NCBI GenBank assembly: GCA_964643795.1
Contig: CAZXUC010000018.1
Location: 2,238 to 66,237 of the forward strand
Length of the DNA stretch: 64,000 nt
Origin: an uncultured Halobacteriales archaeon
GTDB lineage: Archaea > Thermoplasmatota > E2 > JACPAO01 > JAHFTW01
Direction of reading: 5' to 3'
In this document: piece by piece, positions 15,082 through 56,677 of the stretch
How positions within the stretch are numbered: the stretch's first letter is position 1
Layout: every line of letters begins with the position of its first letter
The notes under the pieces: generated by a model
The model's database searches: none
Told to the model about the DNA's origin: nothing
What the model saw: only the letters and a program-made list of their open reading frames with translations
Translations under genes and position numbers: made by a program

Positions 15082-15951
15082 TTAGGTAAGGCGGCGCCGG
15101 AAAGCCCCGGCAAACGCAAGCGCCACAACGATGCCGACAAGACCGAAGGCCGGCGTGGTTGCGTGCGGGGTTCCGCTTGATTCCGCGGTCGTCGAAATCG
15201 AGGAGGATGTCGAACTCGATTCCGTCCCTGTCGCGGTCACGGACGTCGACGAAGTCGTGGCCGACGATGAGCTGGACGACGCCGGCGGCGCTGCGGTGAG
15301 CTTGATGGAGCCGAGCGGGATGATGGTCTGCGCCGCCGTGCCCGCCGCCAACGGCATGAGGTACGCAGTATCTCCCGGCGTGTAGTCAATCGACGTGTCC
15401 GCGTCGAACCACCCGATGCTGGCTGCGTTCCACGGCGCAGCGTTGGATCCGAACGCGATGAAGTCTGCGTCGGCCGCGAGCACAAACGAGCCGGCCGCGA
15501 AGCCGCCATGCGCCGCTTCAGTCGCGGTGAGGCGGACCGTCCACTGCCCCGTCCCGGATGTTGCGACGAGCCCGTTCCCGTTTCCCGTACGGATGTAGAC
15601 GTAGTCGTGCAGCGAGTAGTGGCCGTCGTTGTTCGTGTCCGCGTACATCACCTGCTCCGCCCCGGCGCCGCCGACCTGTGGATAGGGGTCTGTTTTCTCC
15701 TGAACGTCCGCGTCTGCGATTTCCGTTCCGTAGGGCCGCTCGATGCACGGGGTGATGCGCAGGTCGAAATTCTGCGCGCCTGCGCCGGAGGTCTGTCCCA
15801 TGTCGAGGAGGAGGCAGTTATCCGTCGCATCGCCCGCGACGCCGAAGTCGGCCTCGTTGACGTTCACCGCGATGCTGGGGGCTCCCGTGTAGTGCTGGGC
15901 GGCGGCAAGGGGCAAGAGGAAGATGGCGAGCACAGAGAGGAACCGCACCAC
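15082..15951 (-). CDS. Secreted surface protein with an S/T-rich linker and a PGF-CTERM-like anchor. One DxNxDG calcium-binding-like module.
   Basis: Signal peptide. DTNNDGHYSLHDYVYI motif. C-terminus PAFGLVGIVVALAFAGAFRRRLT. Confidence 0.8.
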   Translation of the reverse strand: MVRFLSVLAIFLLPLAAAQHYTGAPSIAVNVNEADFGVAGDATDNCLLLDMGQTSGAGAQNFDLRITPCIERPYGTEIADADVQEKTDPYPQVGGAGAEQVMYADTNNDGHYSLHDYVYIRTGNGNGLVATSGTGQWTVRLTATEAAHGGFAAGSFVLAADADFIAFGSNAAPWNAASIGWFDADTSIDYTPGDTAYLMPLAAGTAAQTIIPLGSIKLTAAPPASSSSSSATTSSTSVTATGTESSSTSSSISTTAESSGTPHATTPAFGLVGIVVALAFAGAFRRRLT

Positions 15952-16098
15952 GAAGAGGGAAGGAGCCGGCCGGCCCTTAGAGACTAACGCATCGGGAACT
16001 GGAAGAGCCCGCGCAATAACAGGAAGGGGGAAAAGGAGACACGTGAGCGTCAGGGAGAGGAGGGGGAGGAGGGAGAGGCGGCGTCGGTGCGCCGCGTG

Positions 16099-18396
16099 CT
16101 AGGCCAGCCGTCGGCGAACCAACAAGCCGACCGCAAGGGCGGCCAAGAGGGCGACAACGCCGAGGCCCGGCGTATTCTCCCCAGTCGTGTCGCCAGAGAT
16201 CGGGGCCGGCTGCGTGGGCGCGGGCGTCGTCGGGGCGGGCGGCGTGGGGGTGGGCTCCACGGTCGGCGTGGGCTCGACGGGCGGCGCCGGCGGTGCGGGG
16301 GGCGCGATGTCTGCCGGCAGATTCCCAAAGAGGCGTACGCTGTAGCGCGGCACCGCCACGGGAGCTGCTCCCACGGCGAAGTAGGCCGAGTCTGTCGGCG
16401 TGAAGGAGCCACTCTGGTCTGCGTCGTAGTAGCGCAGCGACATGCCCGCCGCAGGGAAGGCCGTCACGGCGTTGCGGTACGCGACGAAGTCCGCGTCGGA
16501 GGCGAAGGCCAAGGACCCGGCCGGGTAGTCGCCGACGGGGGTGAGCCGCAGCGTCCAACTGGTCGGGGAGGTGGTCGGAAGTAGCGCCGTCGCTCCGACG
16601 CCGGCCACGACGTAGACGTCGTCGCCCGCCTTGTACTTCCCGTCGTTGTTGCGGTCGCTCCACATGAGCGTGTATCCCCCCGTGTCGGTGAGGACGGTGA
16701 CGGCCCCCTGGCGCAGGGCGACGTCGCCGTCGGAGACGAGTTCACCAGGCGACTTGCCGTTGCAGTTCGAGAGCAAGATGTCGAAGTTGGAGACGATGCC
16801 GGCGCTGATCGTGCTGTCCATGTCGGCAATCAGGCAGTCGTCCGTGGCTTCGGATCCGCCCAGGGCCACCCAGAGCAGGTCGTCCGTCACGAGGATGCCG
16901 GTCGACACGAGGGTAGGGCGGAAGTCGGCGTCGCCCAGTTTGACCTGGACGCCGGCCTTGGCCGGCTCTTGGACCCGGAGCGAGGAGGGGGGCAGGGTGG
17001 TGCCAGCGGCGGCGACGCCGCCCACGACGACGTACCACTTGGCCCCGTCGTACTCCTCGATCTCGGCCGACATCGCGGGCGTGAAGGCCAGGAGAGCGTT
17101 CTTGTAGGCGAGGTAGTCCAGGTCCGTCGCGAAGACGAACGAACCAGCCGGGCCACTTGCCGTCGGCGTCAAGCGGATGGTGAACGCGTCGATCCCAGTC
17201 GTGGCGGGCATGTTGGGCGCCGCCATGGCGGTTCCGGCGGCCATCTGGCCCATGTAGACGTAGTCGCCTGCGTCGTAGCGTCCGTTGTTGTTGACGTCGG
17301 CGAAGAGGAGGTCAACAATCTCCTGGACCGGGGTGGGCGCCTTCTCGATCACGTCGGTGTCAATGATCTTGGTCCCCGGAGCGCCTCCTGGGCCGGTCGT
17401 GATGCGGATGTCGTCGAAGTCGAGGGTGCCCGCCGAGTTCGTGCCCTTGACGTTGAAGAAGAACAAGTCGTCCGTGACGGGCGTGTCGCCAAGCGGCACG
17501 CGCCAGATGATGTCTGCGGCGGTACCCCCGGACAACGGCTTGCCTGCGCCCTTGGATGTCGGGACGAAGTCAGTTGCGCCACTGTTGACGCGGGAACCGA
17601 ACGTGTCGGTCTTGGACAAGCGCAGCGCGTAGCGGGGCGCGAAGACGTTGGCTGCAAAGCCGTCGGCGGCGGTGAAGGCACCATCCCCGTTTGAGGTCTT
17701 GAACATGAGGTAGACGCCGGTGCCCTCGAAGGCGACTGAGAACGCGAAAGGGATGCCTGGAGGCGCGCCGGGGTCGACGGCGGTAATGTCGTTTCCAAGC
17801 ACGACCACGGCGGTCTGGTAGGCTTGGTAGTCCGCGTCCGCGGGGTACGCGAAACTGCCGGCTGGGCCGGCGTCGCTCGACGTCAACCGGATCGTCCACG
17901 AGGCGAGGCCGGTGGTGGGCATGAGGACTGTCGTCCCCGTCCCGGACACGAGGAAGACTGGGTCCTTGTCCTTGAATTTCCCGTCGTGGTCCGCGTCGCC
18001 GTAGACGACGGTGGCGGCAGCCGCCAAGGCGGCGACCTTGATGCTCGAGTCCGAGTCGGACACTAGGTCGCCCGGCTTGCGGGTCTGGTACGGAGTGAGG
18101 AAGATGTCCTCGTTGTCCACGGTGTTGACGAGCGCGCCGCCGACGTTGATGCCCTTCATGTCGATGAAAAACACGTTGTCGGCCACTTCGCCGCTGACGC
18201 CGAGGTCGACCTGCAGCACCTTGAGGTGGTGGTTGTCGTCCACGTTGTCCACGCCGGCGGTCACGCCGTACGCTTTCTTGGAGAGGGGGGCGAAGTCGGC
18301 TTCCTTGTCAACTTGGCTTCCGAATTCGGCTTGTGCTAGCGGACCGGCCAAGAGGAGGGCCGCCAACAGAATTGTTCGCAAATGGATTGTTCGCAT
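16099..18396 (-). CDS. Large surface glycoprotein-like protein with four repeated DxNxDG modules and a PGF-CTERM-like anchor. Paralog of the neighbouring gene.
   Basis: Signal peptide. Repeats DADHDGKFKDKDPVF, DVNNNGRYDAGDYVYM, DRNNDGKYKAGDDVYV. C-terminus PGLGVVALLAALAVGLLVRRRLA. Confidence 0.85.
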   Translation of the reverse strand: MRTIHLRTILLAALLLAGPLAQAEFGSQVDKEADFAPLSKKAYGVTAGVDNVDDNHHLKVLQVDLGVSGEVADNVFFIDMKGINVGGALVNTVDNEDIFLTPYQTRKPGDLVSDSDSSIKVAALAAAATVVYGDADHDGKFKDKDPVFLVSGTGTTVLMPTTGLASWTIRLTSSDAGPAGSFAYPADADYQAYQTAVVVLGNDITAVDPGAPPGIPFAFSVAFEGTGVYLMFKTSNGDGAFTAADGFAANVFAPRYALRLSKTDTFGSRVNSGATDFVPTSKGAGKPLSGGTAADIIWRVPLGDTPVTDDLFFFNVKGTNSAGTLDFDDIRITTGPGGAPGTKIIDTDVIEKAPTPVQEIVDLLFADVNNNGRYDAGDYVYMGQMAAGTAMAAPNMPATTGIDAFTIRLTPTASGPAGSFVFATDLDYLAYKNALLAFTPAMSAEIEEYDGAKWYVVVGGVAAAGTTLPPSSLRVQEPAKAGVQVKLGDADFRPTLVSTGILVTDDLLWVALGGSEATDDCLIADMDSTISAGIVSNFDILLSNCNGKSPGELVSDGDVALRQGAVTVLTDTGGYTLMWSDRNNDGKYKAGDDVYVVAGVGATALLPTTSPTSWTLRLTPVGDYPAGSLAFASDADFVAYRNAVTAFPAAGMSLRYYDADQSGSFTPTDSAYFAVGAAPVAVPRYSVRLFGNLPADIAPPAPPAPPVEPTPTVEPTPTPPAPTTPAPTQPAPISGDTTGENTPGLGVVALLAALAVGLLVRRRLA

Positions 18397-18560
18397 GGGT
18401 TGTCCCGCACGGCCATCCCAGGCGTCCCGTCCTAGCCTCGACGCATTGCAAGTATTGTCGGCTCACGAGAAGACGTGGCACTATTGTGGAACTAGTGGAC
18501 CAGGCCGGGCACCAGGCACCCACGCCGGGCAGACAAGCATGAATCTCGTTAGCGCCGAAC

Positions 18561-18926
18561 TTACGGCCCAACGATCGTCTCCGCGGTCAACTTGCGCACG
18601 ACTCGGCCGTCGGCCACGATGCGGACTTGGAAGGTCATGCGTTCGCCCAGCGTGGCCTCCGGCGGTGCGGCGACTTGGAGGTACAGGACGAGCGGAATCC
18701 CTGCCATGAGTCGGAGCTTGTCCAGCCGAGTGTGTGCCGTCCAACCGGTGGCGGGTGGTTCGACATCGATGTACACGTCGCGGTAGGGTGCGAAGCGGTT
18801 CTGCAGGCGCAACTCGAACCTAGTGATGCGGCCAGGCTTGACCATTCCAGCGTTGGGCGTGATGGTTGCTTGCACTCGCGACCAGCGAGGACGTTGCGGG
18901 CGGAGCTTCAGAAGTTCGTTTGCCAT
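18561..18926 (-). CDS. Hypothetical protein upstream of the surface-protein genes.
   Basis: ORF 18561..18929, 122 aa. Confidence 0.45.
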   Translation of the reverse strand: MANELLKLRPQRPRWSRVQATITPNAGMVKPGRITRFELRLQNRFAPYRDVYIDVEPPATGWTAHTRLDKLRLMAGIPLVLYLQVAAPPEATLGERMTFQVRIVADGRVVRKLTAETIVGP

Positions 18927-19019
18927 CACGATGGACTAGAGGCGCATCACGACGAACCTTCGCACCGGAGACTCCATAGTGAAAGGTGCGACGCGGCATT
19001 CGGTCGTGCGACGGCAGCG

Positions 19020-19328
19020 TCAAGGCGGCGACGGTAACACTTCGAGCATCTCTTCGAGGAGTCGCTCGACCGCTCGCAGGTCCTTTGTCCGTCCCTTCCC
19101 CGGCTTCGTGCGCAGGGCATGGACAGCCTTGCGCATCTTCGCGATGGTCTTCAGGCTCGGCGGGCTTGGCTTGTTCTTGCCGCCAGGTGCCCGCAATGCT
19201 TTCACGACTTCCTGGAACCTCGCGTCCGTGCGCAGCTTGTACGCCTCCGCGGATTCCTTCCATGCACGTCGGGCCGCTTCGACCTCTACGGCAAGGGCCT
19301 GCGCATGTTCCACTCGCTTCGACGTCAT
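19020..19328 (-). CDS. Small basic protein coupled to the thymidylate-kinase-like pair.
   Basis: Its ATG overlaps the stop of the upstream gene (ATGA). Sequence MTSKRVEHAQALAVEVEAARRAWKES... Confidence 0.5.
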   Translation of the reverse strand: MTSKRVEHAQALAVEVEAARRAWKESAEAYKLRTDARFQEVVKALRAPGGKNKPSPPSLKTIAKMRKAVHALRTKPGKGRTKDLRAVERLLEEMLEVLPSPP

Positions 19329-20023
19329 GGCTTGGTTCCCCACGAAGCGAGAAGTCCCTGCAGTTGCGATTGCAAATGCCGGTCGACGACGCCGACGCCA
19401 CGGTTCGCGTTCACGACGTTGAAGCCATAGCGCGGGATGATCTCCTGGAACTGGTCGCGCATCTTGCGTTGGTACTTCAAGAACGATTCGTGCCAATCCC
19501 GGCTCAGGCCCAAGTCCATTCCGGATTCCCAGTAGTCGAGGTCGGGGTGGCGCTCGAGGCGCCGGTCGAGCAGGGTCTTGGCGCTGGCTTGCAAATAGAA
19601 CAACGCGTCCGGCACGATGGCCTTGGCATACACGTTCTCCACCCAGGCGGGGTCTGCGCCGCGGACAAGGTCGCGGGCCATCAGGGTGAAGATGTACCGG
19701 TCGGCGAGCACGATGGCGCCCGAGCGGAGTGCGGGGACGATCTGGTTCTCTAGTTGGTCGTAGAAGTCACTGGCATAGAACAAGCTCATCGTGCGCGGCG
19801 ACAAGGTGTTGCCACGACGGGCTTCCTCGAGTTCCGGCGCGACCAGTTCGCTGCGGCGCAGTCCGACTTCCACGACGGCGTAGCCTTCGCGCTGCAGCCA
19901 CTTGGAGAGGAGGCTAACGTGCGTTGACCGACCTGAGGAATCCTGGCCCTCGATGACGATGAGCAGGCCACCAAGGTCGGCGAGGTTGACGCCGGGCGGA
20001 GGGACACCGTAGCACGTCTTCAC
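19325..20023 (-). CDS. Thymidylate-kinase-like P-loop kinase, paralog B (P-loop Lys replaced by Arg: GRST).
   Basis: IVIEGQDSSGRST P-loop and DRY motif. Start overlaps the upstream stop. Confidence 0.8.
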   Translation of the reverse strand: MKTCYGVPPPGVNLADLGGLLIVIEGQDSSGRSTHVSLLSKWLQREGYAVVEVGLRRSELVAPELEEARRGNTLSPRTMSLFYASDFYDQLENQIVPALRSGAIVLADRYIFTLMARDLVRGADPAWVENVYAKAIVPDALFYLQASAKTLLDRRLERHPDLDYWESGMDLGLSRDWHESFLKYQRKMRDQFQEIIPRYGFNVVNANRGVGVVDRHLQSQLQGLLASWGTKP

Positions 20024-20976
20024 AATGGCACCCCGCGATACACTCGGCTGCGCCGTTGGAATCGCGCCAGATCAACGCGCTTCTTGACGACCGCCCGCAT
20101 CTCCTCCTGCATGGCATGGATCTCCCGGTTGGCGTCGATGCGTTGGAAAGCGAACTCTTCCGCCATGTCGCGATAGTGCTGCATGATGCGACCCTGGAAG
20201 ATCTTGAACGACTCCCGGATGTCCGTATGGAGTTCAAGGTCCATGCCTGCCTCGTGGAACTTGAGGTTGGGTCGGCCGCTGAGGATGCGATGCAGGCTGA
20301 CCTCGAGCGGGACGTCGTAGTAGAACGTCAAGTCGGGGACGCGGGCAAAACTGTACAGGCGACGTAGCCACTCGGGGTCGCAGCCGCGTACGCGGTCGCG
20401 CGCGAAGGCCGTGAACATGTAGCGGTCACACAAGACGATGGTGCCCGATTGCAGGCGCGGCAGGATCTGGCGTTCATATCGGTCCGCAAAATCCGTGGCG
20501 TGGATGAGGCTGAACGTCGTCGGCGTGAGAAGTTGGTCCTTCTTGCCGCGCTTGGTTGCCCCGCGCACGAGGCTCGAACTGTTCCATTCGCTGAAGAAGA
20601 CCTTGCAGCCAAGGCCGATGAGCCACTCGTGCAGGAGCCGGATCTGCGTCGATTTCCCGGAGCCGTCGACGCCTTCGACTGCGATGAGTATCCCCGGCGC
20701 GTTGTCGCCCTGCTCGGCGACGAACTCTGAGGCGGGCGCTTGGGCCGGCGTCAAGGGAGTGGCGGGTGTTGGTAGTGTGGTCGTGGGTGTTGGTAGTGGG
20801 GTGGTTGGTGTCGATGTGGAGGTTTGTGTTGATCCGGGGGTTGGCGTTGATGCGGTGGCTGCTCCCGGGCCTGACGCACCAACTGGTTGTGCCGGGGTCG
20901 CCTTGTGAAGTGGTGGTCTTCCCGCAAGCGCCTTGGGCCTGGTCGTCGCCATCGGCGTCTTGATTGCGGCCTTCAT
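20020..20976 (-). CDS. Thymidylate-kinase-like P-loop kinase, paralog A, with a P/T/A-rich N-terminal extension.
   Basis: IAVEGVDGSGKST and DRY motifs. Start chosen at MKAAIKTP to avoid the 170-nt overlap with ppx that ORF 20020..21183 would create. Confidence 0.7.
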   Translation of the reverse strand: MKAAIKTPMATTRPKALAGRPPLHKATPAQPVGASGPGAATASTPTPGSTQTSTSTPTTPLPTPTTTLPTPATPLTPAQAPASEFVAEQGDNAPGILIAVEGVDGSGKSTQIRLLHEWLIGLGCKVFFSEWNSSSLVRGATKRGKKDQLLTPTTFSLIHATDFADRYERQILPRLQSGTIVLCDRYMFTAFARDRVRGCDPEWLRRLYSFARVPDLTFYYDVPLEVSLHRILSGRPNLKFHEAGMDLELHTDIRESFKIFQGRIMQHYRDMAEEFAFQRIDANREIHAMQEEMRAVVKKRVDLARFQRRSRVYRGVPL

Positions 20977-21011
20977 CGGTTTCACGGGCGGCTTCTTGCG
21001 GGGCTTGCTGC

Positions 21012-22571
21012 TCAAGTCGACTCCTCCTTCTGTGTCTCGAGTTCCAGCCCGTAGACTGTCGTGAAGAGTCCGCCTTTTTGTTGCACGGCCCATTGCTCCA
21101 GTTCCATGTCGCCCTCGCCCGTGAGGCGGAGGCGGAGCAATTTCGGTTCGCGCAGGCACTTGACTTTGCGCACGGCTTGGCAATGCTCCCGGTCGAGGGC
21201 GTCTGCGACGCGAAGGATGCCGGACAGTCGCATCACGCGGGCTTGGTCGGCGAGGCTGAGCGCAGCGTACGGCGCATGGCTCGGCTTGGGCTCACTGCGC
21301 CGGTGGTACCGTGCGACCTGCGCCACGAGTTCCACTTCCGGTTCCGAGAAGCCCGGCAGCTCCGATTCCGAGATGAGGTAGTAGGAGTGCTTGTGGTGTT
21401 TCTTGTCGCCCACGAATCGCCCGACGTCGTGCAGGATGGCGGCGGCGTGCAGGATGGCTCGGTCAGCGGTGCCCAGGTTGTGCAGGGTGGCCAACTGGTC
21501 GAACATGGACAGGGCAAGCCGGGCCACATGAAGACCATGCGCCTGCTCAAGGTCGAACCTGCGTCCGAGGGCGAGCGCCCCGTCTTGGACTTTGGACGCG
21601 TATTTTCCAGCGCGACCGGGAGTAGCCCCTGTCGCTTCAACGAGTTGCTCGACGAGGTCGTACACGATGCCTTCCTTTAGTCCAACGTGGGGGACGTGGA
21701 TGCGGTCGACTCCTGCCAGGTGCGCGACGTGTTCGTACACATACGCAGCGGGGAGGATGACGTCGGCGCGGTCGGGGCGGAGGCCGAGTTCCTTGACGCG
21801 CTCCTTTGCGTCGAGCTTGGCGAGCCGGTCGATGGTCTTGCTGAGGTCCTTGAGCGGCATCTCGCTGACCTTCGTGTCCGGGTCGCGGAGGCCGGCGAGG
21901 CGAGCCAACTCTTCGATGTTGCCTCCCGTCGCGGCGAGGCCGGCAATCTTGCGAGACCTGCGGTTGCCGGGCAGGCGCAGCGTCTCGACGGTCTCTTGGA
22001 TGAGGCGACGGAACCGTTCGGGTTCGCCCTCCATCGCGCGGAATTCTTCGAGCAGGCGGACGGTGCCCATCGGATGCGATTCGCTCCACACGAGTCCGTC
22101 GCCGTCCACGAGGCTCACCTCGACGGAGCCGCCGCCCAGATCCATGGTGATCCAGGACCCGTCCATTTTGATGCGGCGGCGCACCGCCGCGTACACGAGC
22201 CTGGCCTCTTCGGCGCCGCTTACGACGTCGACGCGAAGGCCCGTCTCCTTCAGGATGCGTTCGAGGAAGCGACTTCGGTTGGACGCCTCACGCACGGCGC
22301 TCGTTGCGACAGCGCGCGTCTGGTAAACCTTCAAGTCTTTGAGTTGGCTCTGGAAGCCCTTCAGCGCGGCGACTGCGGCGTCCATCGTCTCCCCGTCGAT
22401 GGAGCCTTCGCGGAAGACGGACGTCCCCAGCCGCACGGTGGCGCGTTCCTCGAGCAGGTCCCGCAAGTCGCCGGCCGGAGTTGCCTCGGCGACCATGCAA
22501 CGGATGGCGTTCGATCCAATGTCGATGGCGGCGAGGCGGACGGGCCATGTTGCGCTGGTCTCTGTGGTCAC
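21012..22571 (-). CDS. ppx: Ppx/GppA exopolyphosphatase with a C-terminal HD domain.
   Basis: AAIDIGSNAIRC actin-fold N-terminus. HD motif (LHDVGRFVGDKKHHKHS). Confidence 0.9.
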   Translation of the reverse strand: MTTETSATWPVRLAAIDIGSNAIRCMVAEATPAGDLRDLLEERATVRLGTSVFREGSIDGETMDAAVAALKGFQSQLKDLKVYQTRAVATSAVREASNRSRFLERILKETGLRVDVVSGAEEARLVYAAVRRRIKMDGSWITMDLGGGSVEVSLVDGDGLVWSESHPMGTVRLLEEFRAMEGEPERFRRLIQETVETLRLPGNRRSRKIAGLAATGGNIEELARLAGLRDPDTKVSEMPLKDLSKTIDRLAKLDAKERVKELGLRPDRADVILPAAYVYEHVAHLAGVDRIHVPHVGLKEGIVYDLVEQLVEATGATPGRAGKYASKVQDGALALGRRFDLEQAHGLHVARLALSMFDQLATLHNLGTADRAILHAAAILHDVGRFVGDKKHHKHSYYLISESELPGFSEPEVELVAQVARYHRRSEPKPSHAPYAALSLADQARVMRLSGILRVADALDREHCQAVRKVKCLREPKLLRLRLTGEGDMELEQWAVQQKGGLFTTVYGLELETQKEEST

Positions 22572-22610
22572 GGCGGCCGCACTCCTCGAGGGCAGACCGG
22601 ATTTCCACTT

Positions 22611-22625
22611 TCCCTATAGAGACTA
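22611..22625. promoter_or_regulatory. CTATAGAGACT motif (inverted copy of GACTCTATAG) in the ppx/pstS divergent region.
   Basis: About 10-bp motif seen four times in the pho locus promoters. Other copies at 22725-22737, 23860-23869 and 23875-23890. Confidence 0.4.
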
Positions 22626-22724
22626 CGGCTCGTTGCACGTGTTGGCCGCCCCAGTTTGGGCGCATGCTTTGCGCGGTGGACTGTTGGGCATTCCCCTGCG
22701 GCGTGAGTCCAACGTGAGTCAATT

Positions 22725-22737
22725 GTGACTCTATAGG
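22725..22737 (+). promoter_or_regulatory. GACTCTATAGG motif (TATA-like) upstream of pstS.
   Basis: Same motif as above. Lies about 25 nt upstream of the TTG at 22759 and about 60 nt upstream of the SD-preceded ATG at 22798. Confidence 0.4.
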
Positions 22738-22797
22738 CAATGCTGAAGCGTCGCAAATTTGCCTGCAAGGTCAGCCCACATGGGTGAGGAAACAACC

Positions 22798-23787
22798 ATG
22801 ACAATGAAGCTCCCTCTGTTCGCGGTGGCCGCCATGACCACCATGCTACTGTCCGGCTGCACCAGCATGACCGGCAGTTCGACCTGCACGCCCTTCGAAG
22901 GCGCGGCCGTCACTATTGACATCGACGGCAGCTCCACCGTGTACCCCGTCTCCGAGGCCTGGGCCGAGGAATACTCCCGCTGCGCCGGCATCGAGGCCAA
23001 CGTCGCCTTCTCCGGCACCGGCGGAGGCTTCCAGCAGTTCTGCCGCGGCGAGATCGACGTCTCTGGCGCCAGCCGCCCCATCAAGACGGGCACCGGCTCC
23101 GAGACTGAGAACTGCCAGAAGGCCGGCATCACCCCCTTCGAGATCCCGGTCGCCATCGACGGGCTCGCCGTCGTCGTGAGCAAGCAGAACACCTTCGTCA
23201 CCGACCTCAAGGTGTCCGAGCTCAACCGCATGTGGACCGCCGACCCCGCCAAGCAGGTCAACAACTGGAAGGACCTGCGTTCCGAGTGGCCCGACCAGGA
23301 CATCAAGCTCTTCGGTCCCGACACCAACTCCGGCACCTTCGACTACTTCGTGGAGGTCATCGTCCACCCCTTCGACGGCAGCATCACCAAGGGCCGCAGC
23401 GACTACACGGGTGCGCCGGACGACCACGTCCTGGTCGCCGGCGTCGCCGGCACCGCCCGCGGCATGGCCTACTTCGGTCTCGCCTACGCGATAGAAGCGG
23501 CGGACAAGCTGCGCATCGTTCCCGTCATCCAGGACACCAAGGACGGCGGCAAGACCTTCATCTCCGGAGCCCAGCCCGTCATGCCCACGGCCAGCAACGT
23601 CGAGAACGGCGTCTACGCCCCCCTCTCCCGCCCGCTGTTCATGTACACGGACGGCGCTCCCACGGGCCAACTCAAGGCCTGGTTCCAGTACGGCCTTTCC
23701 CCCGAGGGCCAAGCGATCGTCTCCGAGGTCGGCTACATCAAGCTGAACGAGGCCAAGCGCACCGCGGCGCTCGCCAAGCTCGGCTAA
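22798..23787 (+). CDS. pstS: Phosphate ABC transporter substrate-binding lipoprotein.
   Basis: Signal peptide MKLPLFAVAAMTTMLLSGC. PstS-like body. ATG at 22798 preceded by GGTGAGGA. ORF 22759..23787. Confidence 0.9.
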   Translation: MTMKLPLFAVAAMTTMLLSGCTSMTGSSTCTPFEGAAVTIDIDGSSTVYPVSEAWAEEYSRCAGIEANVAFSGTGGGFQQFCRGEIDVSGASRPIKTGTGSETENCQKAGITPFEIPVAIDGLAVVVSKQNTFVTDLKVSELNRMWTADPAKQVNNWKDLRSEWPDQDIKLFGPDTNSGTFDYFVEVIVHPFDGSITKGRSDYTGAPDDHVLVAGVAGTARGMAYFGLAYAIEAADKLRIVPVIQDTKDGGKTFISGAQPVMPTASNVENGVYAPLSRPLFMYTDGAPTGQLKAWFQYGLSPEGQAIVSEVGYIKLNEAKRTAALAKLG

Positions 23788-23859
23788 GGCTCCCGGCATC
23801 CCGCCCCTCTTCCCCTTTCCTCCCTGGCACTCCTTGGGCCCCCAAACCGCTTTCATGTT

Positions 23860-23890
23860 CTCTAGAGTCAACATTAGACTCTATAGACAA
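23860..23890 (+). promoter_or_regulatory. Tandem CTCTAGAGTC / GACTCTATAG motifs between pstS and pstC, a candidate internal promoter or operator.
   Basis: Perfect palindrome CTCTAGAG followed by GACTCTATAG, about 35 nt upstream of the pstC ATG at 23921. Confidence 0.4.
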
Positions 23891-23920
23891 CTGTCATGCC
23901 GCGACGCGGCCCCTCGACCG

Positions 23921-24889
23921 ATGCCCATGGCCCCCGAATCCCTTCCCGCAGCCGCCCCTGTGCTGCACCGCGAGGGCTGGGGCTGGCACGTCTGGAAGGA
24001 ACGCGGCATCATCGCCATCATGTTTGCGGCGGCCAGTGTCGCCACCCTGGCCACGGCGGCCATCTTCCTCACCCTGATAATCAACGGCTGGGAGTTCTTC
24101 CAAGCCGTGAGCCTCAAGGAGTTCTTCACCGGCACCGACTGGGCGCCCGACTTCCCACCGCCGCGCTTCGGCAGCGTCCCGTTAGTCAAGGGCACGTTCC
24201 AGATCGCCCTCGGCGCCATCGCCATTGGCCTGCCCCTCGGCGTGGGATCGGCCTTGTTCATTTCGGAGTTCGCCGGCGCCCGCGTCCGCCGCATCCTCAA
24301 GCCCGCCATCGAGATTCTCGCTGGTATCCCCTCCATCATCTTCGGCCTCGTCGCCCTCTTCATTCTCTCCCCCCTCATCATCGACCTCTTCGGCCCCAGC
24401 AAGCTGTTCCCGGTCAGCGAGACGCCGGGCACCTTCACGGCCCTGGCCGCCATCTTGGCTTTGTCCATTATGGTCATCCCCATCATCGCCGCCATCAGTG
24501 AGGACGCCCTGCGCGCCGTCCCCATAGAACTGCGGGAAGCCAGCCTCGCCCTGGGCGCCACGAAGTGGGAAACGACGTGGAGCGTCGTGCTGCCTGCCGC
24601 CAAGTCCGGCATCACGGCCTCCGTCATCCTCGGCTTCAGCCGCGCCATCGGCGAAACCATGGTCGTCACGCTGGCCGCTGGCCTCGTCAGCAACATGAGC
24701 TGGAACCCCCTCGAGCCGACCCAGACCATCACCGCTTTCATCGCCAACCGCGCCGGCGGAGACCTTCCCACGGGCAGCATCGAGTACCTGGCCATCTTCG
24801 CCCTCGGCGCCTTGCTCTTCGTCATCACCTTCATCATCAACCTCGTCGCCGAGTACATCCTGGCTGCGCAGCGGAGGAAGTTCGCATGA
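23921..24889 (+). CDS. pstC: Phosphate ABC transporter permease.
   Basis: ATG at 23921 in ORF 23834..24889. Multi-TM ABC permease with the EAA-like loop. Confidence 0.9.
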   Translation: MPMAPESLPAAAPVLHREGWGWHVWKERGIIAIMFAAASVATLATAAIFLTLIINGWEFFQAVSLKEFFTGTDWAPDFPPPRFGSVPLVKGTFQIALGAIAIGLPLGVGSALFISEFAGARVRRILKPAIEILAGIPSIIFGLVALFILSPLIIDLFGPSKLFPVSETPGTFTALAAILALSIMVIPIIAAISEDALRAVPIELREASLALGATKWETTWSVVLPAAKSGITASVILGFSRAIGETMVVTLAAGLVSNMSWNPLEPTQTITAFIANRAGGDLPTGSIEYLAIFALGALLFVITFIINLVAEYILAAQRRKFA

Positions 24890-25758
24890 CCTCCACACTC
24901 GGCACCCTCTCCCTGCGGCGCCGCATCAAGTCCGCCATCGGCGTGGGCACCCTCGGCTTCGGCGCGTTCGGCGCGTTGGCGGTCCTTGCATGGCTTCTCG
25001 CCCTCATCGTCCAGAAGGGTGCCCCGTCCATCGACCTGCAGTTCCTGCAGGGATTCCCGTCCCGCAACGCGGCCGACGCTGGCGTCCTGCCCGCCGTCGT
25101 CGGCACGCTGCTCGTCGGCGCGGCCAGCATGCTGGTGGCAATCCCGGTGGGCATCGCCGCCGCCGTCTACCTCAACGAGTTCGCCCGCGCCACGCGCCTC
25201 ACGTCCTTCCTGCGCGCCAGCATCGCCAACCTTGCGGGCGTCCCCTCCGTGGTCTTCGGCATCCTCGGCCTGGCCCTTTTCGTCCGCGCCATGCAACTAG
25301 GCTCCAGCATCGTCTCCGCCGGCCTCACCCTGGGCCTCCTGACGCTTCCCATCGTGATCGTCGTGTCCGAGGAGGCCCTCAAGTCCGTGCCCGGCGCGAT
25401 GCGCGAGGCTGCCTACGGCCTGGGCGCGAGCCCTTGGCAGGCCGTGCGCCACCATGTCCTTCCCTACTCTCTGCCTGGCATGCTGACGGGCAGCATCCTC
25501 GCCCTCAGCCGCACGATGGGCGAGACCGCTCCGCTCATCCTCATCGGCGCTGTCGGCTTCACGGCAACGCTTCCGCAAGGCCCCAAGGACGCCTTCACGG
25601 TCCTGCCCATCCAGGCATACAGTTGGGCACCACGCCACCAGCCTGGCTTCGAGGCCATTGCGTGGGGCGCCGTCCTGATCCTCATCATCCTGGTGCTGGT
25701 GGCCAACCTCGCCGCCATCATCATGCGCGACCGCTTCCAACGCCGCTACCGGTGGTAA
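24886..25758 (+). CDS. pstA: Phosphate ABC transporter permease.
   Basis: ATG at 24886 overlaps the pstC TGA. Permease fold. Confidence 0.9.
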
Positions 25759-25759
25759 C

Positions 25760-26611
25760 ATGGCCCAAACCCTTCAGACCCAAACCAAGATGAACCACGC
25801 CTCGGCTCGCTTGCTCGTGAAGACCGCCGGCCCGCTGCCCAAGGCGGCCCCCATCATCGATCCCATCTTCACGGCGCGCGGCCTCGGCGTCCATTACGGC
25901 ACCAAGCAGGCGCTTCGGGACATCACCATCGACATCCCACAAAAACAGGTCACGGCATTCATCGGGCCGTCCGGCTGCGGCAAGTCCACGTTCCTGCGCT
26001 GCCTCAACCGCATGAACGACCTGATTCCGACTGCCAAAGTGTCGGGCGACCTGCGCTTCCGGGGCCTCGACGTCCACTCTAAGGACGTGGACCCGGTCAT
26101 GCTACGGCGCAAGGTCGGCATGGTGTTCCAGAAGCCCAACCCGTTCCCGAAGTCAATCTTCGAGAACATCGCATACGGCCTGAAGCTAGAGGGCAACCTC
26201 TCCAAGGCCGACGTCAAGGACCGCGTCATGTGGGCGCTGGAGAAGGCGAACCTCAGGGCGGAAGTTGAAGACCGACTCAATCAGCCTGGCACTGCACTTT
26301 CGGGGGGTCAACAGCAGCGCCTGTGCATCGCCCGCGCCTTGGCGGTCAAACCCGACGTCATCCTCATGGACGAGCCTTGCTCAGCCCTGGACCCGATTGC
26401 CACCTCAAAAATTGAGGACCTGATTGACGAACTGGTGAAGGAGTACACGGTCGTCATCGTCACGCACAACATGCAGCAGGCGGCGCGCGTGTCGGATCGG
26501 ACGGCGTTCTTCTACCTCGGCGACCTCATCGAGTACGATTCGACGCAGCGCATTTTCGAGAAGCCATCCAACGAGAAGACCGAGGCTTATGTCACGGGGA
26601 GGTTCGGCTGA
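25760..26611 (+). CDS. pstB: Phosphate ABC transporter ATP-binding protein.
   Basis: Walker [13 protein letters not shown] signature LSGGQQQR, Walker B ILMDEP. Confidence 0.95.
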
Positions 26612-27264
26612 TGCGCGAGAGCTTCCTTTCGCAGCTTGAGGCCCTCGACCAACATGTCGCAGACATGGCGCACCTGGCCAAGTCGATGCTCGCCGATGGT
26701 CTGGACGCACTTGAGGCCGTGGACCCTCACCTGGCAGAAACTGTCGCCGAGCGTGCCGAGGAACTGGCGAAGATGGACGAAAGCATCGAGACGGAAGCCC
26801 TCTCCTTGTTGATGCTGCAGGCGCCCGTCGCAAGGGACCTGCGCCGAATCGGAGCCATCCTGAAGATCATCACGTACCTGAACCGCATTGGGCGCTATGG
26901 CTATGACATCGCCAAGGCCACGAAGGACCTTGCCAAGGTCCCTGCCCCCCAACGGTCCAGCATCGTGACCCTGCGCCAGATGTCCGGCGACGTTGAGAAG
27001 ATGGTTGACTTGGTCTTGGCGGCCTTCCGCGAGCGGAAGGGCCCGGATGTGCGGGCCATCATGGCACTCGAAGACGACGTGGATTCCCAGCGCTACACGG
27101 TTTGGCGTGCCTGCCTCAGTTTCATGGCAGAGGAGCCCAAGACCATCGAAGCTTGTGCCCACGTCATGATGGTGGCGCGGTACTTGGAACGCTGCGGCGA
27201 CAACGTCGTCAAGATGGCTGAGAAGCTGCACTACGCCGCAACTGGCGAGCGCATCATGCTGTAA
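26611..27264 (+). CDS. phoU: Phosphate uptake regulator PhoU.
   Basis: ATG overlaps the pstB stop. Two PhoU repeats. Confidence 0.9.
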   Translation: MRESFLSQLEALDQHVADMAHLAKSMLADGLDALEAVDPHLAETVAERAEELAKMDESIETEALSLLMLQAPVARDLRRIGAILKIITYLNRIGRYGYDIAKATKDLAKVPAPQRSSIVTLRQMSGDVEKMVDLVLAAFRERKGPDVRAIMALEDDVDSQRYTVWRACLSFMAEEPKTIEACAHVMMVARYLERCGDNVVKMAEKLHYAATGERIML

Positions 27265-39609: not shown

Positions 39610-39984
39610 ATGGGATTGAAGTCTCTCTTCACGCCGCGCACGGCCACCAAGCGTTCGGACGGGGCCGACTACATCGACCTCGAGGAATACACGCAAGGCA
39701 CCGAGATGTTCGACGGCACGGCCAGCATGATGGTCCGCGTCGCGGAGATCGCGAAGTACGACGACCTGCGCGAGTACGCGAACTACGTTTACCAGGGCAA
39801 CCTCCTGCTCCTCGACTTCTCCGCCATCGCGAACGACGAGATTATTCTCCGCCGCGTCACGGGCGACTTGAAGAAGCTCGTCGCGGACATCAACGGCGAC
39901 ATCGCGGGCCTCGGCAAGACTATGCTCATCATCGCGCCGACCGGCGTCAAGATTGACCGGCATAAGGCGCGCTCGGGCCGCTAG
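39610..39984 (+). CDS. sepF: Archaeal SepF-like cell division protein.
   Basis: DUF552 core (VRVAEIAKYDDLREYANYVYQGNLLLLDFSAIANDE...GKTMLIIAPTGVKI). Confidence 0.8.
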   Translation: MGLKSLFTPRTATKRSDGADYIDLEEYTQGTEMFDGTASMMVRVAEIAKYDDLREYANYVYQGNLLLLDFSAIANDEIILRRVTGDLKKLVADINGDIAGLGKTMLIIAPTGVKIDRHKARSGR

Positions 39985-44224: not shown

Positions 44225-44285
44225 GCGGCGGTAGTTCGACGCCGGTTCGACGGCGGTTCGGCGCTGGTTCGGAGGTCGTTCAGCG
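44225..44285. repeat. About 11-bp imperfect tandem repeat (GGTTCGRNGNN, 5 copies) in the rpa promoter region.
   Basis: gtagttcgacgcc ggttcgacggc ggttcggcgct ggttcggaggtc gttcagcggc. Confidence 0.45.
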
Positions 44286-44771
44286 GCGGCGCAAGGCCAC
44301 GGCAGCGAGGAGGCCTAACGTAAGCAGGGGCAACGGGGCACCCGGAATGCCAGTCTTGCCGGACGTGCTGGGTCCATCCTCGTAATCCACCACGTCGCCG
44401 GCCACGACGTTCAGCGTGACGGTGTCGCTGGTCGGCTCGTCGCGCAGGGCGTAGGTGCCGGGCGCGCCCATGGGGAATTTCTCGGAATCCTGGATGTCAA
44501 CCGCTTCCACCGTGACCGAGGCTGCGTGACCGGCGAGGCTGACCGTGTGACGGACGTCGTCGTCGTTGTAGACCGAGAGCATGAACCAGTCGCCGGAGGT
44601 GAAATTGAGCTGGGACACCGACGCGATTCCGAGGTCGTCTACGTCCACGGTGAGGATGCATGGATTGGCTTCGACGCATCCGTCCTCCGCTTGGACTTGC
44701 CCTGACGCATGGGGCGCAACGACAAGCATAGACAGCACGGCGGCAAAGGGCAGGAGGGGGGACCGGCGCAT
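44280..44771 (-). CDS. Secreted protein with a PGF-CTERM-like C-terminal anchor.
   Basis: Signal peptide. C-terminus GIPGAPLPLLTLGLLAAVALRRR. Confidence 0.6.
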   Translation of the reverse strand: MRRSPLLPFAAVLSMLVVAPHASGQVQAEDGCVEANPCILTVDVDDLGIASVSQLNFTSGDWFMLSVYNDDDVRHTVSLAGHAASVTVEAVDIQDSEKFPMGAPGTYALRDEPTSDTVTLNVVAGDVVDYEDGPSTSGKTGIPGAPLPLLTLGLLAAVALRRR

Positions 44772-48576: not shown

Positions 48577-49638
48577 TCAGACCAAGCGGAGGAAGTCATC
48601 GACCGCCGCGCCGGGGCCGGCCACTTTCTTGGAGGGCATTTGCTGGCTCAAGCAGTGGATGGCACCCATCCCCCAGACTAAGTCTTGGCAAGGCAGCTTA
48701 ACGACGGGGCGGTCCTTGAAGCACTGCTGCAATCGTCGTTGCGCGATGTCGTCGGTCGGGCTTGCGAAGGTCGGCATGAGGACGGCGCCGTTCGTGATGA
48801 GGAAGTTGCCGTGGCTCGCTGGCAGGACGTTGCCTTCGTTATCGATCAGGTCCTTCGGCATCGGCAGTTCCACGATGCGAATCGACCGGTTGTGGGCGTC
48901 GGTCATGTGGCTCAACCGATGTCGGTTCTCGGCGAGGGGCTCGTAGTTGGGGTGAGCTCGGTCCTCTTCGACGCACGTGACGACGAGGCGGGGACCAACG
49001 AAGCGCGTGATGTCATCGACGTGGCCATCCGTATCGTCGCCTGCGATGCCGTCCGCGAGCCACAGGACTTTCTCGACGCCGAGGTATTCGCGCAAGTGCC
49101 TCTCGATGTCGGGCCGCGTCATGTCGTGGTTGCGGTTCTTGTTGAGCAGGCATTGTTCCGTGGTGATGAGTGTTCCTTGGCCGTCGACGTCGACGGAGCC
49201 GCCCTCCAGGACCATCTTGACGGCTGAGAGCGGGGAGCCGATTGCGTCGCCCAGTTGGTCGATGACCTTCTTGTCGCGCAAGAGTGATTCGTACTTGTTG
49301 CCCCACGCGTTGAATTCGAAGCGGACGACGATGCGGTCGCGCGTTCCCGGTTGCTTGCCGGGGCGAACGAGATAGATGGGGCCGTAATCGCGGATCCACG
49401 AGTCCTGATGGTTGACGGCGTGGAACTTGACGTTCTTGATTCCCTCGGCCTTGACGGCCTTGCTTGCGGCGGCTTCGAGGTCGGGGTGGACGACGAGGTC
49501 GACGCGTTGGTGCGGCGTGATTGCCTTCATCGCTGCTAGGAATGTTGCGCGCGCCAACGCAACGCGGTCCGGCCACGTCACTGGGTCGCGGGGCCAGACG
49601 AGCCAGACGGATTCCTGCGGCTCCCATTCGGCTGGCAT
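48577..49638 (-). CDS. aguA: Agmatine deiminase.
   Basis: MPAEWEPQESVWLVWP N-terminus. Catalytic-Cys C-terminal region (GAIHC). ATG at 49638 in ORF 48577..49704. Confidence 0.9.
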   Translation of the reverse strand: MPAEWEPQESVWLVWPRDPVTWPDRVALARATFLAAMKAITPHQRVDLVVHPDLEAAASKAVKAEGIKNVKFHAVNHQDSWIRDYGPIYLVRPGKQPGTRDRIVVRFEFNAWGNKYESLLRDKKVIDQLGDAIGSPLSAVKMVLEGGSVDVDGQGTLITTEQCLLNKNRNHDMTRPDIERHLREYLGVEKVLWLADGIAGDDTDGHVDDITRFVGPRLVVTCVEEDRAHPNYEPLAENRHRLSHMTDAHNRSIRIVELPMPKDLIDNEGNVLPASHGNFLITNGAVLMPTFASPTDDIAQRRLQQCFKDRPVVKLPCQDLVWGMGAIHCLSQQMPSKKVAGPGAAVDDFLRLV

Positions 49639-49799
49639 GCGGTAGCCCTGCTCGCGCGGGGTCGGAACGGGGCCGCGCAGCGACATGTGCACGGCAGCCT
49701 TCACGCGGGCACGATTGGCGCTTGCGACTTAACGGCGCCGCAACCCGCCCCCGCCCGGACCACCTGCCCACGCACCGCACCGGGCGCTTGCGGCCGTGA

Positions 49800-51398: not shown

Positions 51399-51531
51399 GC
51401 GCCGGACGTGGCGGGGCGGATTGAAAGTGTTGCGGTGGCCGGGGCGAGCGCCGTCCGGCACGTCGCGCCGGCTGCTTCGAACGCGATTGCCCCCCGGAAA
51501 TGCCCATGAAGTCGCCGGGCGTGCCTTTCCC

Positions 51532-51852
51532 ATGGCCTACGACGAGGGTCTTGCCGAACGTATCCGCGAGCTCTTGCCCAAGGCGACCGAGAAACGCATG
51601 TTCGGTGGCGTCGGCTTCATGGAGCGCGGCAACCTCGTGGTGGGAGTCCTGGGCGACGAAATGATTGCCCGCGTCGGTCCCGATGACACGGCGGCGGCCC
51701 TCAAGGAGGATGGGGTTCGCACCTTCGACTTCACCGGGAAAACGATGAAGGGCTGGGTCGTCGTCGCGCAAGAAGTCCTGCCGGAAGAGGAAGAGCTCCT
51801 AGCGTGGGTGCAACGCTGCCAGAATTTTGCCCGCACGCTGCCTGCCAAGTGA
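51532..51852 (+). CDS. TfoX N-terminal-domain protein.
   Basis: ATG at 51532 in ORF 51178..51852. MAYDEGLAERIRELL...RMFGGVGFM matches the TfoX_N fold. Confidence 0.75.
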   Translation: MAYDEGLAERIRELLPKATEKRMFGGVGFMERGNLVVGVLGDEMIARVGPDDTAAALKEDGVRTFDFTGKTMKGWVVVAQEVLPEEEELLAWVQRCQNFARTLPAK

Positions 51853-52068: not shown

Positions 52069-52117
52069 GCAGCGGGACCGGCTGGCCGCTAGATGAAGGC
52101 TGGAGGCTGGCTTGGGC

Positions 52118-52346
52118 TCGACATGCGCCTCGGAGCCTTCCTGGCCGAGGGAGCACCATCATCGCGCTGCGCGAGGACAGCAAGGCCCGTGTCGTCAACA
52201 AGAACCACTTCGAGGAAGCGTTCCGCAGCGTCTGCATCTCCGTCACGGAAGAGGTCATCAAGTACTACGACCGCCTCGCCGAGCAGCTCGGCCAGACCAC
52301 CGTCAAGAAGGTCGCGACGGGCGGGGGCGGAATGGAGTTCCTTTAA
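52118..52346 (+). pseudogene. C-terminal fragment of a Cdc48/VAT-type AAA ATPase (last 65-75 aa only).
   Basis: Third-frame translation STIIALREDSKARVVNKNHFEEAFRSVCISVTEEVIKYYDRLAEQLG...MEFL* matches a Cdc48 C-terminus. No upstream ATPase body. Confidence 0.6.
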
Positions 52347-52416
52347 GGGACTGCGGTCCCAGCGGCGGGCCGTTGCGGCCGTCAAAGCTGATATCCTATC
52401 CAAGAATGGTTCTGCC

Positions 52417-53919: not shown

Positions 53920-54029
53920 CGCCCCGGCGTGTTCTGGCTCGCACCATTATTTCCCCTGGACCACTCGAAGGGCTGGGTGCACTGAATGAAGGTCTTCGAG
54001 TCCGAGCTGCGTGGCGGCGTCTTCGTGCG

Positions 54030-54275
54030 GCCGTGCTGACATGCGCGCCCAACGCGCGCGACGAGCGCCAAGCCGCCTACGAAGAATTCGGGGCCCACAT
54101 CTGGAAAACCGTCCTTGACGACGTTGAATTCCCCGACTTCGACGACAAACTCACCTACCTCCAAAACGGCCGCGGCGACTGGACCCGATGCGTCCTGCAC
54201 CCCGGCATGTCCGCCACCAACAACCCCGCCGAACAAGCCCTACGGGAACACGTCACAGCTACACGGATTGAATCC
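54030..54275 (+). mobile_element. IS66-family transposase C-terminal remnant.
   Basis: In-frame segment ...DWTRCVLHPGMSATNNPAEQALREHV... carries the NNxAExALR motif of IS66 TnpC. No DDE core and no IRs. Confidence 0.5.
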
Positions 54276-56610: not shown

Positions 56611-56677
56611 GGGCACGGTCGCGGTGGCGGCCCCCCACATGCGCGCCATGTCACGGAATCGCGGGGAGGACGCAAAT

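Follow-up and report, generated by a model that had tools for sequence, protein, structure and literature searches.

The window analysed here, a 64,000-nucleotide stretch of contig CAZXUC010000018.1 from an uncultured Thermoplasmatota archaeon, carries two adjacent genes on its minus strand, A and B, and the question raised by this locus is what kind of proteins they encode. We find that the module repeated in A and B is a real, new domain family within an ordinary overall protein design. Our favoured reading, which we hold to be moderately probable, is that A and B are calcium-stabilised, C-terminally anchored exported proteins in the outer protein layer of this archaeon, with O-glycosylated stalks.

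Two paralogous genes share a large module

16099..18396, minus strand: gene A (open reading frame, ORF), 765 amino acids (aa), with signal peptide, three modules, Pro/Thr-rich stalk and PGL-hydrophobic-RRR tail
15082..15951, minus strand: gene B (ORF), 289 aa, with signal peptide, one module, Ser/Thr-rich stalk and PAF-hydrophobic-RRR tail

Both ORFs, described in a first-pass annotation of this DNA, exist on the minus strand at these positions. Gene A has a G+C content at third codon positions (GC3) of 0.87, a 765-residue gene is called at its position, beside B, in the Logan assembly of SRR6868923, and a database protein (P0026; NCBI; Logan run SRR6868923) is identical to B. The annotation had also called the two proteins paralogs, and this stands: BLASTP aligns them at E = 2e-27, with B matching three separate segments of A (residues 58-193, 308-431 and 516-689). 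By six-frame hmmsearch, A and B are the only family members in the window. Both mature proteins are acidic, mature A having 84 Asp + Glu against 42 Lys + Arg, which speaks for an extracellular location.

A BLASTP self-comparison of A gave the identity match alone, and the modules were delimited using phmmer with mature B as probe and a MAFFT alignment of 24 excised modules, as well as hmmsearch. With mature B, phmmer found exactly three domains in A and likewise in most homologs; the family hidden Markov model (HMM) matched A three times and B once, with E values from 1e-61 to 1e-72. At the level of these profiles, the similarity between A and B modules is far beyond chance. The four modules of roughly 125 aa previously proposed for A have to be replaced by three of about 215-240 aa, with one in B; the count of four arose because calcium-type loops were counted, two of which lie in module 3.

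17602..18324, minus strand: A module 1, residues 25-265, 241 aa; insertion in the third unit; without the Cys pair
16957..17601, minus strand: A module 2, residues 266-480, 215 aa; third-unit loop degenerate
16318..16956, minus strand: A module 3, residues 481-693, 213 aa; best conserved, with two calcium-type loops and Cys521/Cys545
15286..15900, minus strand: B module, residues 18-222; without the FGSQVKLGDSDF strand, with Cys46/Cys69

The FGSQVKLGDSDF strand opens every module in multi-module proteins, and B has no FGSQ segment at either end. Conserved blocks in the 24-module alignment are FGSQVKLGDSDFxPT, TDDCFY, NFDIRLTPCxGKAAGTLVxDxDTxEK, YADVNNNGRYDxGDYVY, WTIRLT, AAGTxVFAxDxD, FDADxxxxxTxGDxxY and PxxSxRL. 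All modules of A and B match the profile of ~215 positions with its NFDIRLTP, ADVNNNGRYDxGDYVY, WTIRLT and AAGTxVFAxDxD blocks. The motif D.CL..DM..T..AG..NFD, earlier ascribed to each module, is present in B and in A module 3; A modules 1 and 2 have lost most of it, together with both Cys.

Each module is built from three related units

For the analysis of internal repeats, the module alignment was split into units a, b and c, with unit c lengthened by the first 14 residues of the next module. Profile comparison with hhalign gave 97.2% for a against b (E 3e-11) and 96.9% for b against c (E 1.4e-10), while a against c reached E 1e-3 in the same register; units b and c can be aligned over their full length. 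On these alignments, each module goes back to the ancient triplication of a ~70-aa unit, so that A comprises nine units and B three. The plan of the unit is a strand, a 12-residue loop, a strand, an 'x-I-R-L-T' strand and then 'A-G-T-x-V-x-x-D-x-D'. Sequence and the strand assignment by DSSP suggest that, in multi-module proteins, the third unit is completed by the opening FGSQVKLGDSDF segment of the next module.

Structure prediction of one module had been proposed as a check, and it returned a confident, compact model: for module 3 (23-row module alignment), AlphaFold2 gave an all-beta structure with short helices, with a mean predicted local distance difference test (pLDDT) of 86 and a predicted template modelling score (pTM) of 0.87. 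The DSSP strand pattern of this model repeats three times. A model of A residues 23-700, computed with 14 homologs, reached pLDDT 79.5 and pTM 0.76, which suggests that the three modules of A are held in a fixed arrangement.

The module is covered by no Pfam or NCBIfam model and has no PDB neighbour

No model of Pfam or NCBIfam covers the module in A or B, and NCBIfam matches only the tails. The single Pfam match is GEVED (PF20009) at A residues 365-420 in module 2, with 26.6 bits against a gathering threshold of 24.4; it spans profile positions 5-67 of 78, and B has no GEVED match. Among 33 isolated units, sub-threshold Pfam matches were distributed over GEVED (8), Dockerin_1 (7), GspH (6), FG-GAP_3 (5) and EF-hand (1-2). 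The first isolated unit scored 18.4 bits for GEVED, below threshold, and the first unit scanned against dockerin type I (PF00404) reached 13.8 bits against a cut-off of 22.9. The best FG-GAP_3 match on isolated units, at E 0.0048, likewise lies below the gathering threshold. In a PDB sequence search with the family profile, the sole meaningful resemblance was to the dockerin type I loop (E 0.11), and two relatives (P0005 and P0152) carry precomputed Dockerin_1 matches. A Pfam scan of 60 further family members revealed co-occurring Big_7, Big_13, PKD, TSP_3, Kelch and fn3 domains and no model over the module; the relatives are annotated as 'hypothetical', 'PKD domain-containing', 'MYXO-CTERM domain-containing' or 'PGF-CTERM protein'.

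Structure searches point in the same direction. Foldseek with the module model found no PDB entry at E <= 0.001 (best E 0.3, TM-score <= 0.3); among the weak matches, jacalin-type beta-prism lectins (banana lectin, Calsepa, Heltuba) recur, together with norovirus P domains. With the three-module model, CRTAC1 came top (E 2e-3), followed by DPP8/9, GH74 and plexin, at TM-scores of ~0.1 and a probability of 0.12. A structure search of BFVD gave no significant neighbour. As modelled, the module is thus without a solved-structure neighbour in the PDB, and the earlier proposal of an undescribed domain family is borne out by both sequence and fold searches.

GEVED has been defined as a stalk domain in bacterial fibrillar adhesins (PMC10952558), such as CshA. 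The two have in common extracellular beta units with a D-x-N-x-D-G-type loop, and a ~70-aa unit of A module 2 matches the GEVED profile above threshold. However, the units of the present family end in G-T-x-V-x-x-D-x-D instead of the eponymous motif, B and most units stay below threshold, and three units are combined per module in an archaeal lineage, whereas GEVED is a single stalk domain. With the loops of dockerin type I, EF-hand, FG-GAP and CRTAC1, the family shares the common pattern D-x-N/D-x-N/D-G-x-aromatic-x-x-x-D. Unlike those of dockerins and EF-hands, its loops are flanked by beta-strands and not helices in the AlphaFold model, and there is no dockerin pair architecture; unlike FG-GAP proteins and CRTAC1, the family models show no propeller-level structural match. 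The likeness to FG-GAP, dockerin and EF-hand loops noted in the first-pass annotation therefore holds as a resemblance, at sub-threshold scores only.

Calcium-type loops and a covarying cysteine pair

Calcium-type loops, as previously described, are indeed present; those of the type D-x-[ND]-x-[DNS]-G number four in A (starting at residues 134, 367, 581 and 658) and two in B (105 and 183).

17962..17997, minus strand: calcium-type 12-residue loop DADHDGKFKDKD, A residues 134-145 (regular-expression scan)
17263..17298, minus strand: calcium-type loop DVNNNGRYDAGD, A residues 367-378 (regular-expression scan)
16621..16656, minus strand: calcium-type loop DRNNDGKYKAGD, A residues 581-592; pLDDT ~91 in the module model
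16390..16425, minus strand: calcium-type loop DADQSGSFTPTD, A residues 658-669, in the third unit of module 3
15604..15639, minus strand: calcium-type loop DTNNDGHYSLHD, B residues 105-116
15370..15405, minus strand: weaker calcium-type loop DADTSIDYTPGD, B residues 183-194, with Ile and not Gly at position 6
16762..16836, minus strand: Cys pair C521/C545, the only Cys of A, in the first unit of module 3; putative disulfide
15745-15816: Cys pair C46/C69, the only Cys of B, in the first unit of the B module

The loops are strongly conserved across the family. Among 21 loops of unit b, position 1 is Asp in 20, position 3 Asn or Asp in 20, position 5 Asn or Asp in 19 and position 6 Gly in 16; position 8 is aromatic in 20 and Leu in the remaining one, and position 12 is Asp in all 21. 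The 12 loops of unit c all carry Asp or Asn at positions 1 and 3, Ser, Thr or Asn at position 5 and Asp at position 12, which is thereby Asp in 33/33 family loops examined. Position 9, the integrin-type ligand, is variable (Asp, Lys, Ser or Asn). By its residues, the loop pattern is of the EF-hand/dockerin ligand type with Asp at position 12, and this conservation makes Ca2+ binding by the loops a well-motivated expectation.

The Cys pair of the first unit varies in a concerted manner: of the 24 modules, 13 have both Cys, 10 have neither and one has a single Cys. As the pair is kept or lost together, it suggests a disulfide, which would support an extracellular location.

N-glycosylation sequons are absent from the folded modules

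The proteins had been called glycoproteins, and in the N-linked sense this is contradicted by the sequences. Neither A nor B contains a single N-x-S/T sequon, a feature that would be expected of classical S-layer (surface-layer) glycoproteins, and across the 24 modules (5,278 residues) the count is 0 against 36 expected. The control motifs S/T-x-N (37), N-S/T (27) and N-x-x-S/T (20) occur at normal levels in the same modules. When A, B and 12 homologs are considered at full length, 8 sequons are found against 59 expected, all 8 outside the modules; in 156 family proteins, 362 sequons compare with 546-618 for the control motifs. The window's remaining proteins are not depleted, with 36 sequons where 31 would be expected. 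Since the control motifs are normal and the other window proteins undepleted, the purge concerns specifically the N-glycosylation motif, and specifically this family, and it implies selection keeping the folded modules free of N-glycans.

O-glycosylation of the linkers or stalks is plausible, as such stalks commonly serve as its substrates. The enzymes of archaeal O-glycosylation were described as not yet identified in a 2018 review (PMC6098224), and our literature searches found no archaeal study of protein O-mannosyltransferases (PMT).

Termini, stalks and anchoring

18328..18396, minus strand: A signal peptide MRTIHLRTILLAALLLAGPLAQA, AQA motif preceding EFGSQ, putative cleavage site
15898..15951, minus strand: B signal peptide (M)VRFLSVLAIFLLPLAAA, putative cleavage site
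16171..16317, minus strand: A stalk PADIAPPAPPAPPVEPTPTVEPTPTPPAPTTPAPTQPAPISGDTTGENT, 49 aa, Pro/Thr-rich, probably O-glycosylated
15154..15285, minus strand: B stalk, 44 aa, Ser/Thr-rich
16102..16170, minus strand: A C-terminal tripartite tail PGLGVVALLAALAVGLLVRRRLA, PGF-CTERM-like but sub-threshold, hydrophobic segment at residue 741
15085..15153, minus strand: B C-terminal tail PAFGLVGIVVALAFAGAFRRRLT, PAF + hydrophobic segment + RRR

Both proteins begin with a hydrophobic, signal-like segment, in agreement with the signal peptides reported earlier, and the tails are built as described, with PGL in A and PAF in B followed by a hydrophobic stretch and RRR. Together, the signal-like N-termini and the hydrophobic-basic tails uphold the view of secreted cell-surface proteins. 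Of the Ser/Thr-rich linkers, the one of B (44 aa) fits that description, while the 49-aa linker of A is Pro/Thr-rich.

To call the two proteins typical archaeosortase A substrates, as in the first-pass annotation, is too strong. Both proteins have the helix and RRR, yet PGL or PAF stands before them in place of PGF; on the PGF_CTERM model (TIGR04126), A reaches 15.4 bits against the curated cut-off of 24.5 and B has no match. The B tail matches weakly the tail regions of the PGF-CTERM-type models TIGR04281 (13.2 bits) and TIGR04204 (9.7 bits). Relatives ending in TPGFELVALVAALGAALILVRRKL score 19-20.4 bits on PGF_CTERM and about equally on Heimdall-CTERM, with up to 22.4 against a cut-off of 24. 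In Haloferax volcanii, PGF permutation blocks processing, as stated in the title of Abdul Halim et al. 2016 (cited in PMC12462473).

Across 156 family proteins, a signal-like N-terminus was found in 137 and a hydrophobic-plus-basic tail in 127. P-[GAE]-x stands directly before the helix in 98 of these 127 tails (PGF 29, PGL 24, PGV 10, PAL 9). The pattern fits a dedicated sorting system by its sequence, with scores that fall short of PGF-CTERM membership. The same tripartite tail type occurs on a 163-aa secreted protein with a signal peptide (44280-44771, minus strand; tail GIPGAPLPLLTLGLLAAVALRRR) that is unrelated to A and B and scores 15.6 bits, below cut-off, on MYXO-CTERM. Its tail suggests a sorting signal shared in this genome. 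The multi-transmembrane (multi-TM) ORFs of the window were considered as archaeosortase candidates; they match LPG_synthase_TM, UbiA, PMT_2 (weakly), ZIP and Pst permeases.

Relatives form a conserved gene cluster in other Thermoplasmatota

Word-index searches with single sequences gave 7 and then 27 relatives, and a profile search of 1.84 billion representative proteins extended this number to 409 at E <= 1e-3, of which 99 lie at E <= 1e-30. All named relatives are from Thermoplasmatota or Thermoplasmata metagenome-assembled genomes (MAGs) of groundwater and sand filters. A search of GTDB species representatives with a six-sequence alignment is in line with this result, as 7/7 loci belong to Thermoplasmatota/Thermoplasmata MAGs from the same two kinds of habitat. 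Family proteins contain 1 to 8 modules, several tandem paralogs occur per genome, and a giant member of 3,505 aa is surrounded by archaeal genes.

In three assemblies (H32-bin033, SO_2017_GW1_49 and nzgw65), the genes follow a common order on one strand: a tri-module gene (~770-800 aa), a single-module gene (~280-290 aa), a divergent member (~1,030-1,200 aa) and a PMT fusion (863-874 aa) with GT2, GtrA/DPMS_TM and PMT/PMT_2/PMT_4TMC domains. A fourth assembly, a sand-filter MAG, has a tri-module gene, a large member and a separate 561-aa PMT_2 protein.

L001 13427-16531; L004 11925-15521; L010 12957-16478; L006-L008: third cluster member in the related loci
L001 16589-19180; L004 15573-18197; L010 16530-19121 (= L013 13963-16554); L007 6088-7773: cluster-end PMT genes in the related loci

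The third member consists of divergent copies of the units with an extra C-terminal region and the same tail type. B shares 48% identity with the single-module gene that takes the corresponding place in the H32 cluster (L001), and the A-B pair is, judged by gene order and similarity, the conserved core of the cluster. The fusion at its end combines Dol-P-Man-synthase (DPMS)-like and protein O-mannosyltransferase-like parts and is a candidate dedicated protein O-mannosylation enzyme. Because this fusion adjoins the cluster in relatives, O-mannosylation of the stalks is the most economical hypothesis. A weakly PMT_2-like ORF of the window (57783-59360) was considered as its counterpart and has no similarity to the fusion.

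In the H32 MAG, the toxin-antitoxin genes ParE, HicB and HicA flank and separate the two tri-module paralogs (L001 4604-6561 and 9295-9755), which hints at recent duplication or a mobile context.

Genes surrounding A and B in the window

18561-18929, minus strand: third ORF of the range originally marked, 122 aa, no signal peptide, unrelated to A and B

This ORF shows only a weak match to the Ig-like FixG_C (E 0.16), appears in the Logan assembly as a gene of 94 aa and has no conserved place beside family genes elsewhere; it was rejected as a part of the system.

The genes flanking A and B are unrelated to them. Upstream lie thymidylate-kinase-like genes, Ppx/GppA-HD and the pst operon: at 19325-27264, a tandem pair of thymidylate-kinase-family genes (232 aa and, depending on the start, 244-387 aa) and a Ppx/GppA-HD protein adjoin a pstS-pstC-pstA-pstB-phoU phosphate-uptake operon. 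Downstream are a cobalamin adenosyltransferase, NikR and a ZIP transporter. Elsewhere in the window, a 124-aa protein (39610-39984, plus strand) belongs to a 90%-identity cluster whose members are named 'filamentous hemagglutinin family protein' by the Joint Genome Institute (JGI), an odd name for a protein of such size. At 48577-51533 on the minus strand, a Porphyromonas-type peptidyl-arginine/agmatine deiminase (E 2e-114) adjoins a 577-aa subtilase (Peptidase_S8) with an N-terminal hydrophobic segment. At 52093-59360 lies a membrane/envelope cluster. Its genes encode a 608-aa six-TM protein without Pfam match, an NAD-dependent epimerase, one protein each of the LPG_synthase_TM and UbiA prenyltransferase families, and a seven-TM protein that PMT_2 matches weakly (E 0.004).

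Proposed function and alternative explanations

Following the favoured reading, A and B would be exported and held at the membrane by their C-termini. An EF-hand/dockerin-type loop is retained in the second and usually the third unit of each module, with putative oxygen ligands at positions 1, 3, 5 and 12. These loops would bind Ca2+ and stiffen the module, A having four such sites and B one or two; the first-unit Cys pair would form an extracellular disulfide. The modules may project on the stalk and, with B and paralogs encoded elsewhere, build an outer protein layer, which could be a lattice or lack such order. The folded modules would stay free of N-glycans, whereas the stalks are likely sites of O-glycosylation, since in relatives the cluster ends with the DPMS-like/PMT-like fusion. 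The tail may be cut and replaced by a lipid through an archaeosortase-type enzyme, or it may serve as a plain transmembrane anchor. A more specific version, in which three GEVED-like units form a new pseudo-threefold, calcium-stabilised fold and the coat is N-glycan-free with stalks O-mannosylated by the cluster fusion enzyme, is put forward tentatively and appears doubtful as a whole.

Several observations weigh against the outer-layer proposal. The tails of A and B fail the curated PGF-CTERM threshold, with PGL and PAF in place of PGF, and no archaeosortase or exosortase family match exists among the multi-TM ORFs of the window. Neither the PMT fusion nor the third cluster member was found in the window by tblastn and six-frame hmmsearch. 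Ca2+ binding is deduced from motif conservation alone, and the three-fold geometry and the strand donation by the next module from sequence and DSSP alone. The synteny between H32 and nzgw65 runs into the flanking genes, so that it reflects relatedness in part, not selection. Moreover, the number of paralogs varies, and fusions with PKD, Big, Kelch and TSP3 domains occur elsewhere in the family; both features would suit adhesins no less than coat proteins.

That A and B are adhesins or lectin-like binders of glycans, other cells or minerals, with calcium loops in their binding sites and stalk and tail presenting them, we consider unlikely. The weak Foldseek matches of the module are dominated by three-fold beta-prism lectins and norovirus P domains, but every lectin match is insignificant (E >= 0.3, TM-score <= 0.3). 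The only above-threshold Pfam match is to a domain defined in bacterial fibrillar adhesins; it covers one unit of one module, ends at profile position 67/78 and concerns a stalk domain, not a binding domain. Tandem expansion of paralogs with 1 to 8 modules, fusions with PKD, Big_7, Big_13, Kelch, TSP_3 and fn3, and the toxin-antitoxin genes between paralogs in L001 would suit such proteins, yet the strict order and size of tri- and single-module genes in distant genomes better fits a fixed structural complex. An even more different picture, in which the units are diverged FG-GAP-type propeller blades and A is an integrin-alpha-/CRTAC1-like nine-blade calcium-binding protein, seems very improbable. 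It draws on CRTAC1 (E 2e-3) and further propellers as best PDB matches of the three-module model, on weak FG-GAP_3 or FG-GAP matches in 6/33 units, and on the FG/AG...D.D motif and strand-flanked D-x-N-x-N-G loop of every unit. However, the TM-score is ~0.1 at a Foldseek probability of 0.12, and all these Pfam matches are below gathering threshold. A single module folds alone (pTM 0.87), while the single three-unit module of B and many relatives cannot close a propeller; the invariant Asp at loop position 12 is that of EF-hands and dockerins, whereas the integrin-type position 9 varies.

A narrower question is whether A and B are ordinary type I membrane proteins whose helix and RRR act as a stop-transfer anchor, with no archaeosortase or lipid involved, which we regard as somewhat unlikely. 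The sub-cut-off TIGR04126 score of A and its absence in B speak for a plain anchor, as do the variation of the P-G/A-x motif in the family (PGF, PGL, PGV, PAL, PAF), the lack of an exosortase/archaeosortase match among the multi-TM ORFs of the window, and a literature search that found no paper connecting archaeosortases with Thermoplasmatota. On the other hand, the P-[GAE]-x motif before the helix in 98/127 tails and the same tail on the unrelated 163-aa secreted protein are more in keeping with a sorting signal. The homolog tails come near threshold for a signal of 25 residues (19-20 on PGF_CTERM, up to 22.4 on Heimdall-CTERM), and JGI lists a family member under the name 'PGF-CTERM protein'. 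Furthermore, short sorting signals often need lineage-specific HMMs, for example for Methanosarcinales (PMC9723798).

Comparison with known surface proteins and significance

Overall, A and B represent a familiar architecture carrying a new domain. The Methanosarcina S-layer protein consists of tandem ~250-aa DUF1608 beta domains, a linker and a C-terminal anchor, and A resembles it in this arrangement; the domain is unrelated, with no DUF1608 Pfam match, and A has three copies, each internally triplicated. The S-layer glycoprotein of Haloferax volcanii (HVO_2072, TIGR04216), the model ArtA/PGF-CTERM substrate, shows the same overall design as A and B: a signal peptide, beta-rich extracellular domains, a membrane-proximal Thr/Ser-rich stalk, which is O-glycosylated in haloarchaea, and a C-terminal tripartite signal. 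The sequence match is confined to the tail region (E 0.009), and its domains are without sequence or fold similarity to the modules of A and B. Haloarchaeal S-layer glycoproteins are N-glycosylated (PMC6098224), whereas A and B have no N-sequons, carry a sub-cut-off PGL or PAF tail and belong to an organism that is no halophile.

In cultured Thermoplasmatales, a dense, unordered exterior coat of membrane-attached proteins, ~20 nm thick, is reported to replace the crystalline S-layer (Gaines et al. 2025, PMC12448462). This layer, from the same phylum, is a type of structure that A and B could build; it was described from acidophiles, whereas the A/B lineage consists of neutral-pH groundwater MAGs. 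The family thus offers concrete candidate coat subunits for uncultured, non-acidophilic Thermoplasmatota.

The complete and specific absence of sequons from the folded modules is the opposite of what classical archaeal S-layer glycoproteins show. The linkage of the family to the DPMS-like/PMT-like fusion in relatives points to a candidate for an archaeal O-glycosylation pathway and, if the reading as an O-mannosylated coat is true, the fusion would be the first candidate machinery for archaeal protein O-glycosylation. A confident domain prediction without PDB neighbour and with clear internal symmetry is useful for the study of fold evolution. Even if the functional readings fail, annotation databases gain a new domain family with correct boundaries.

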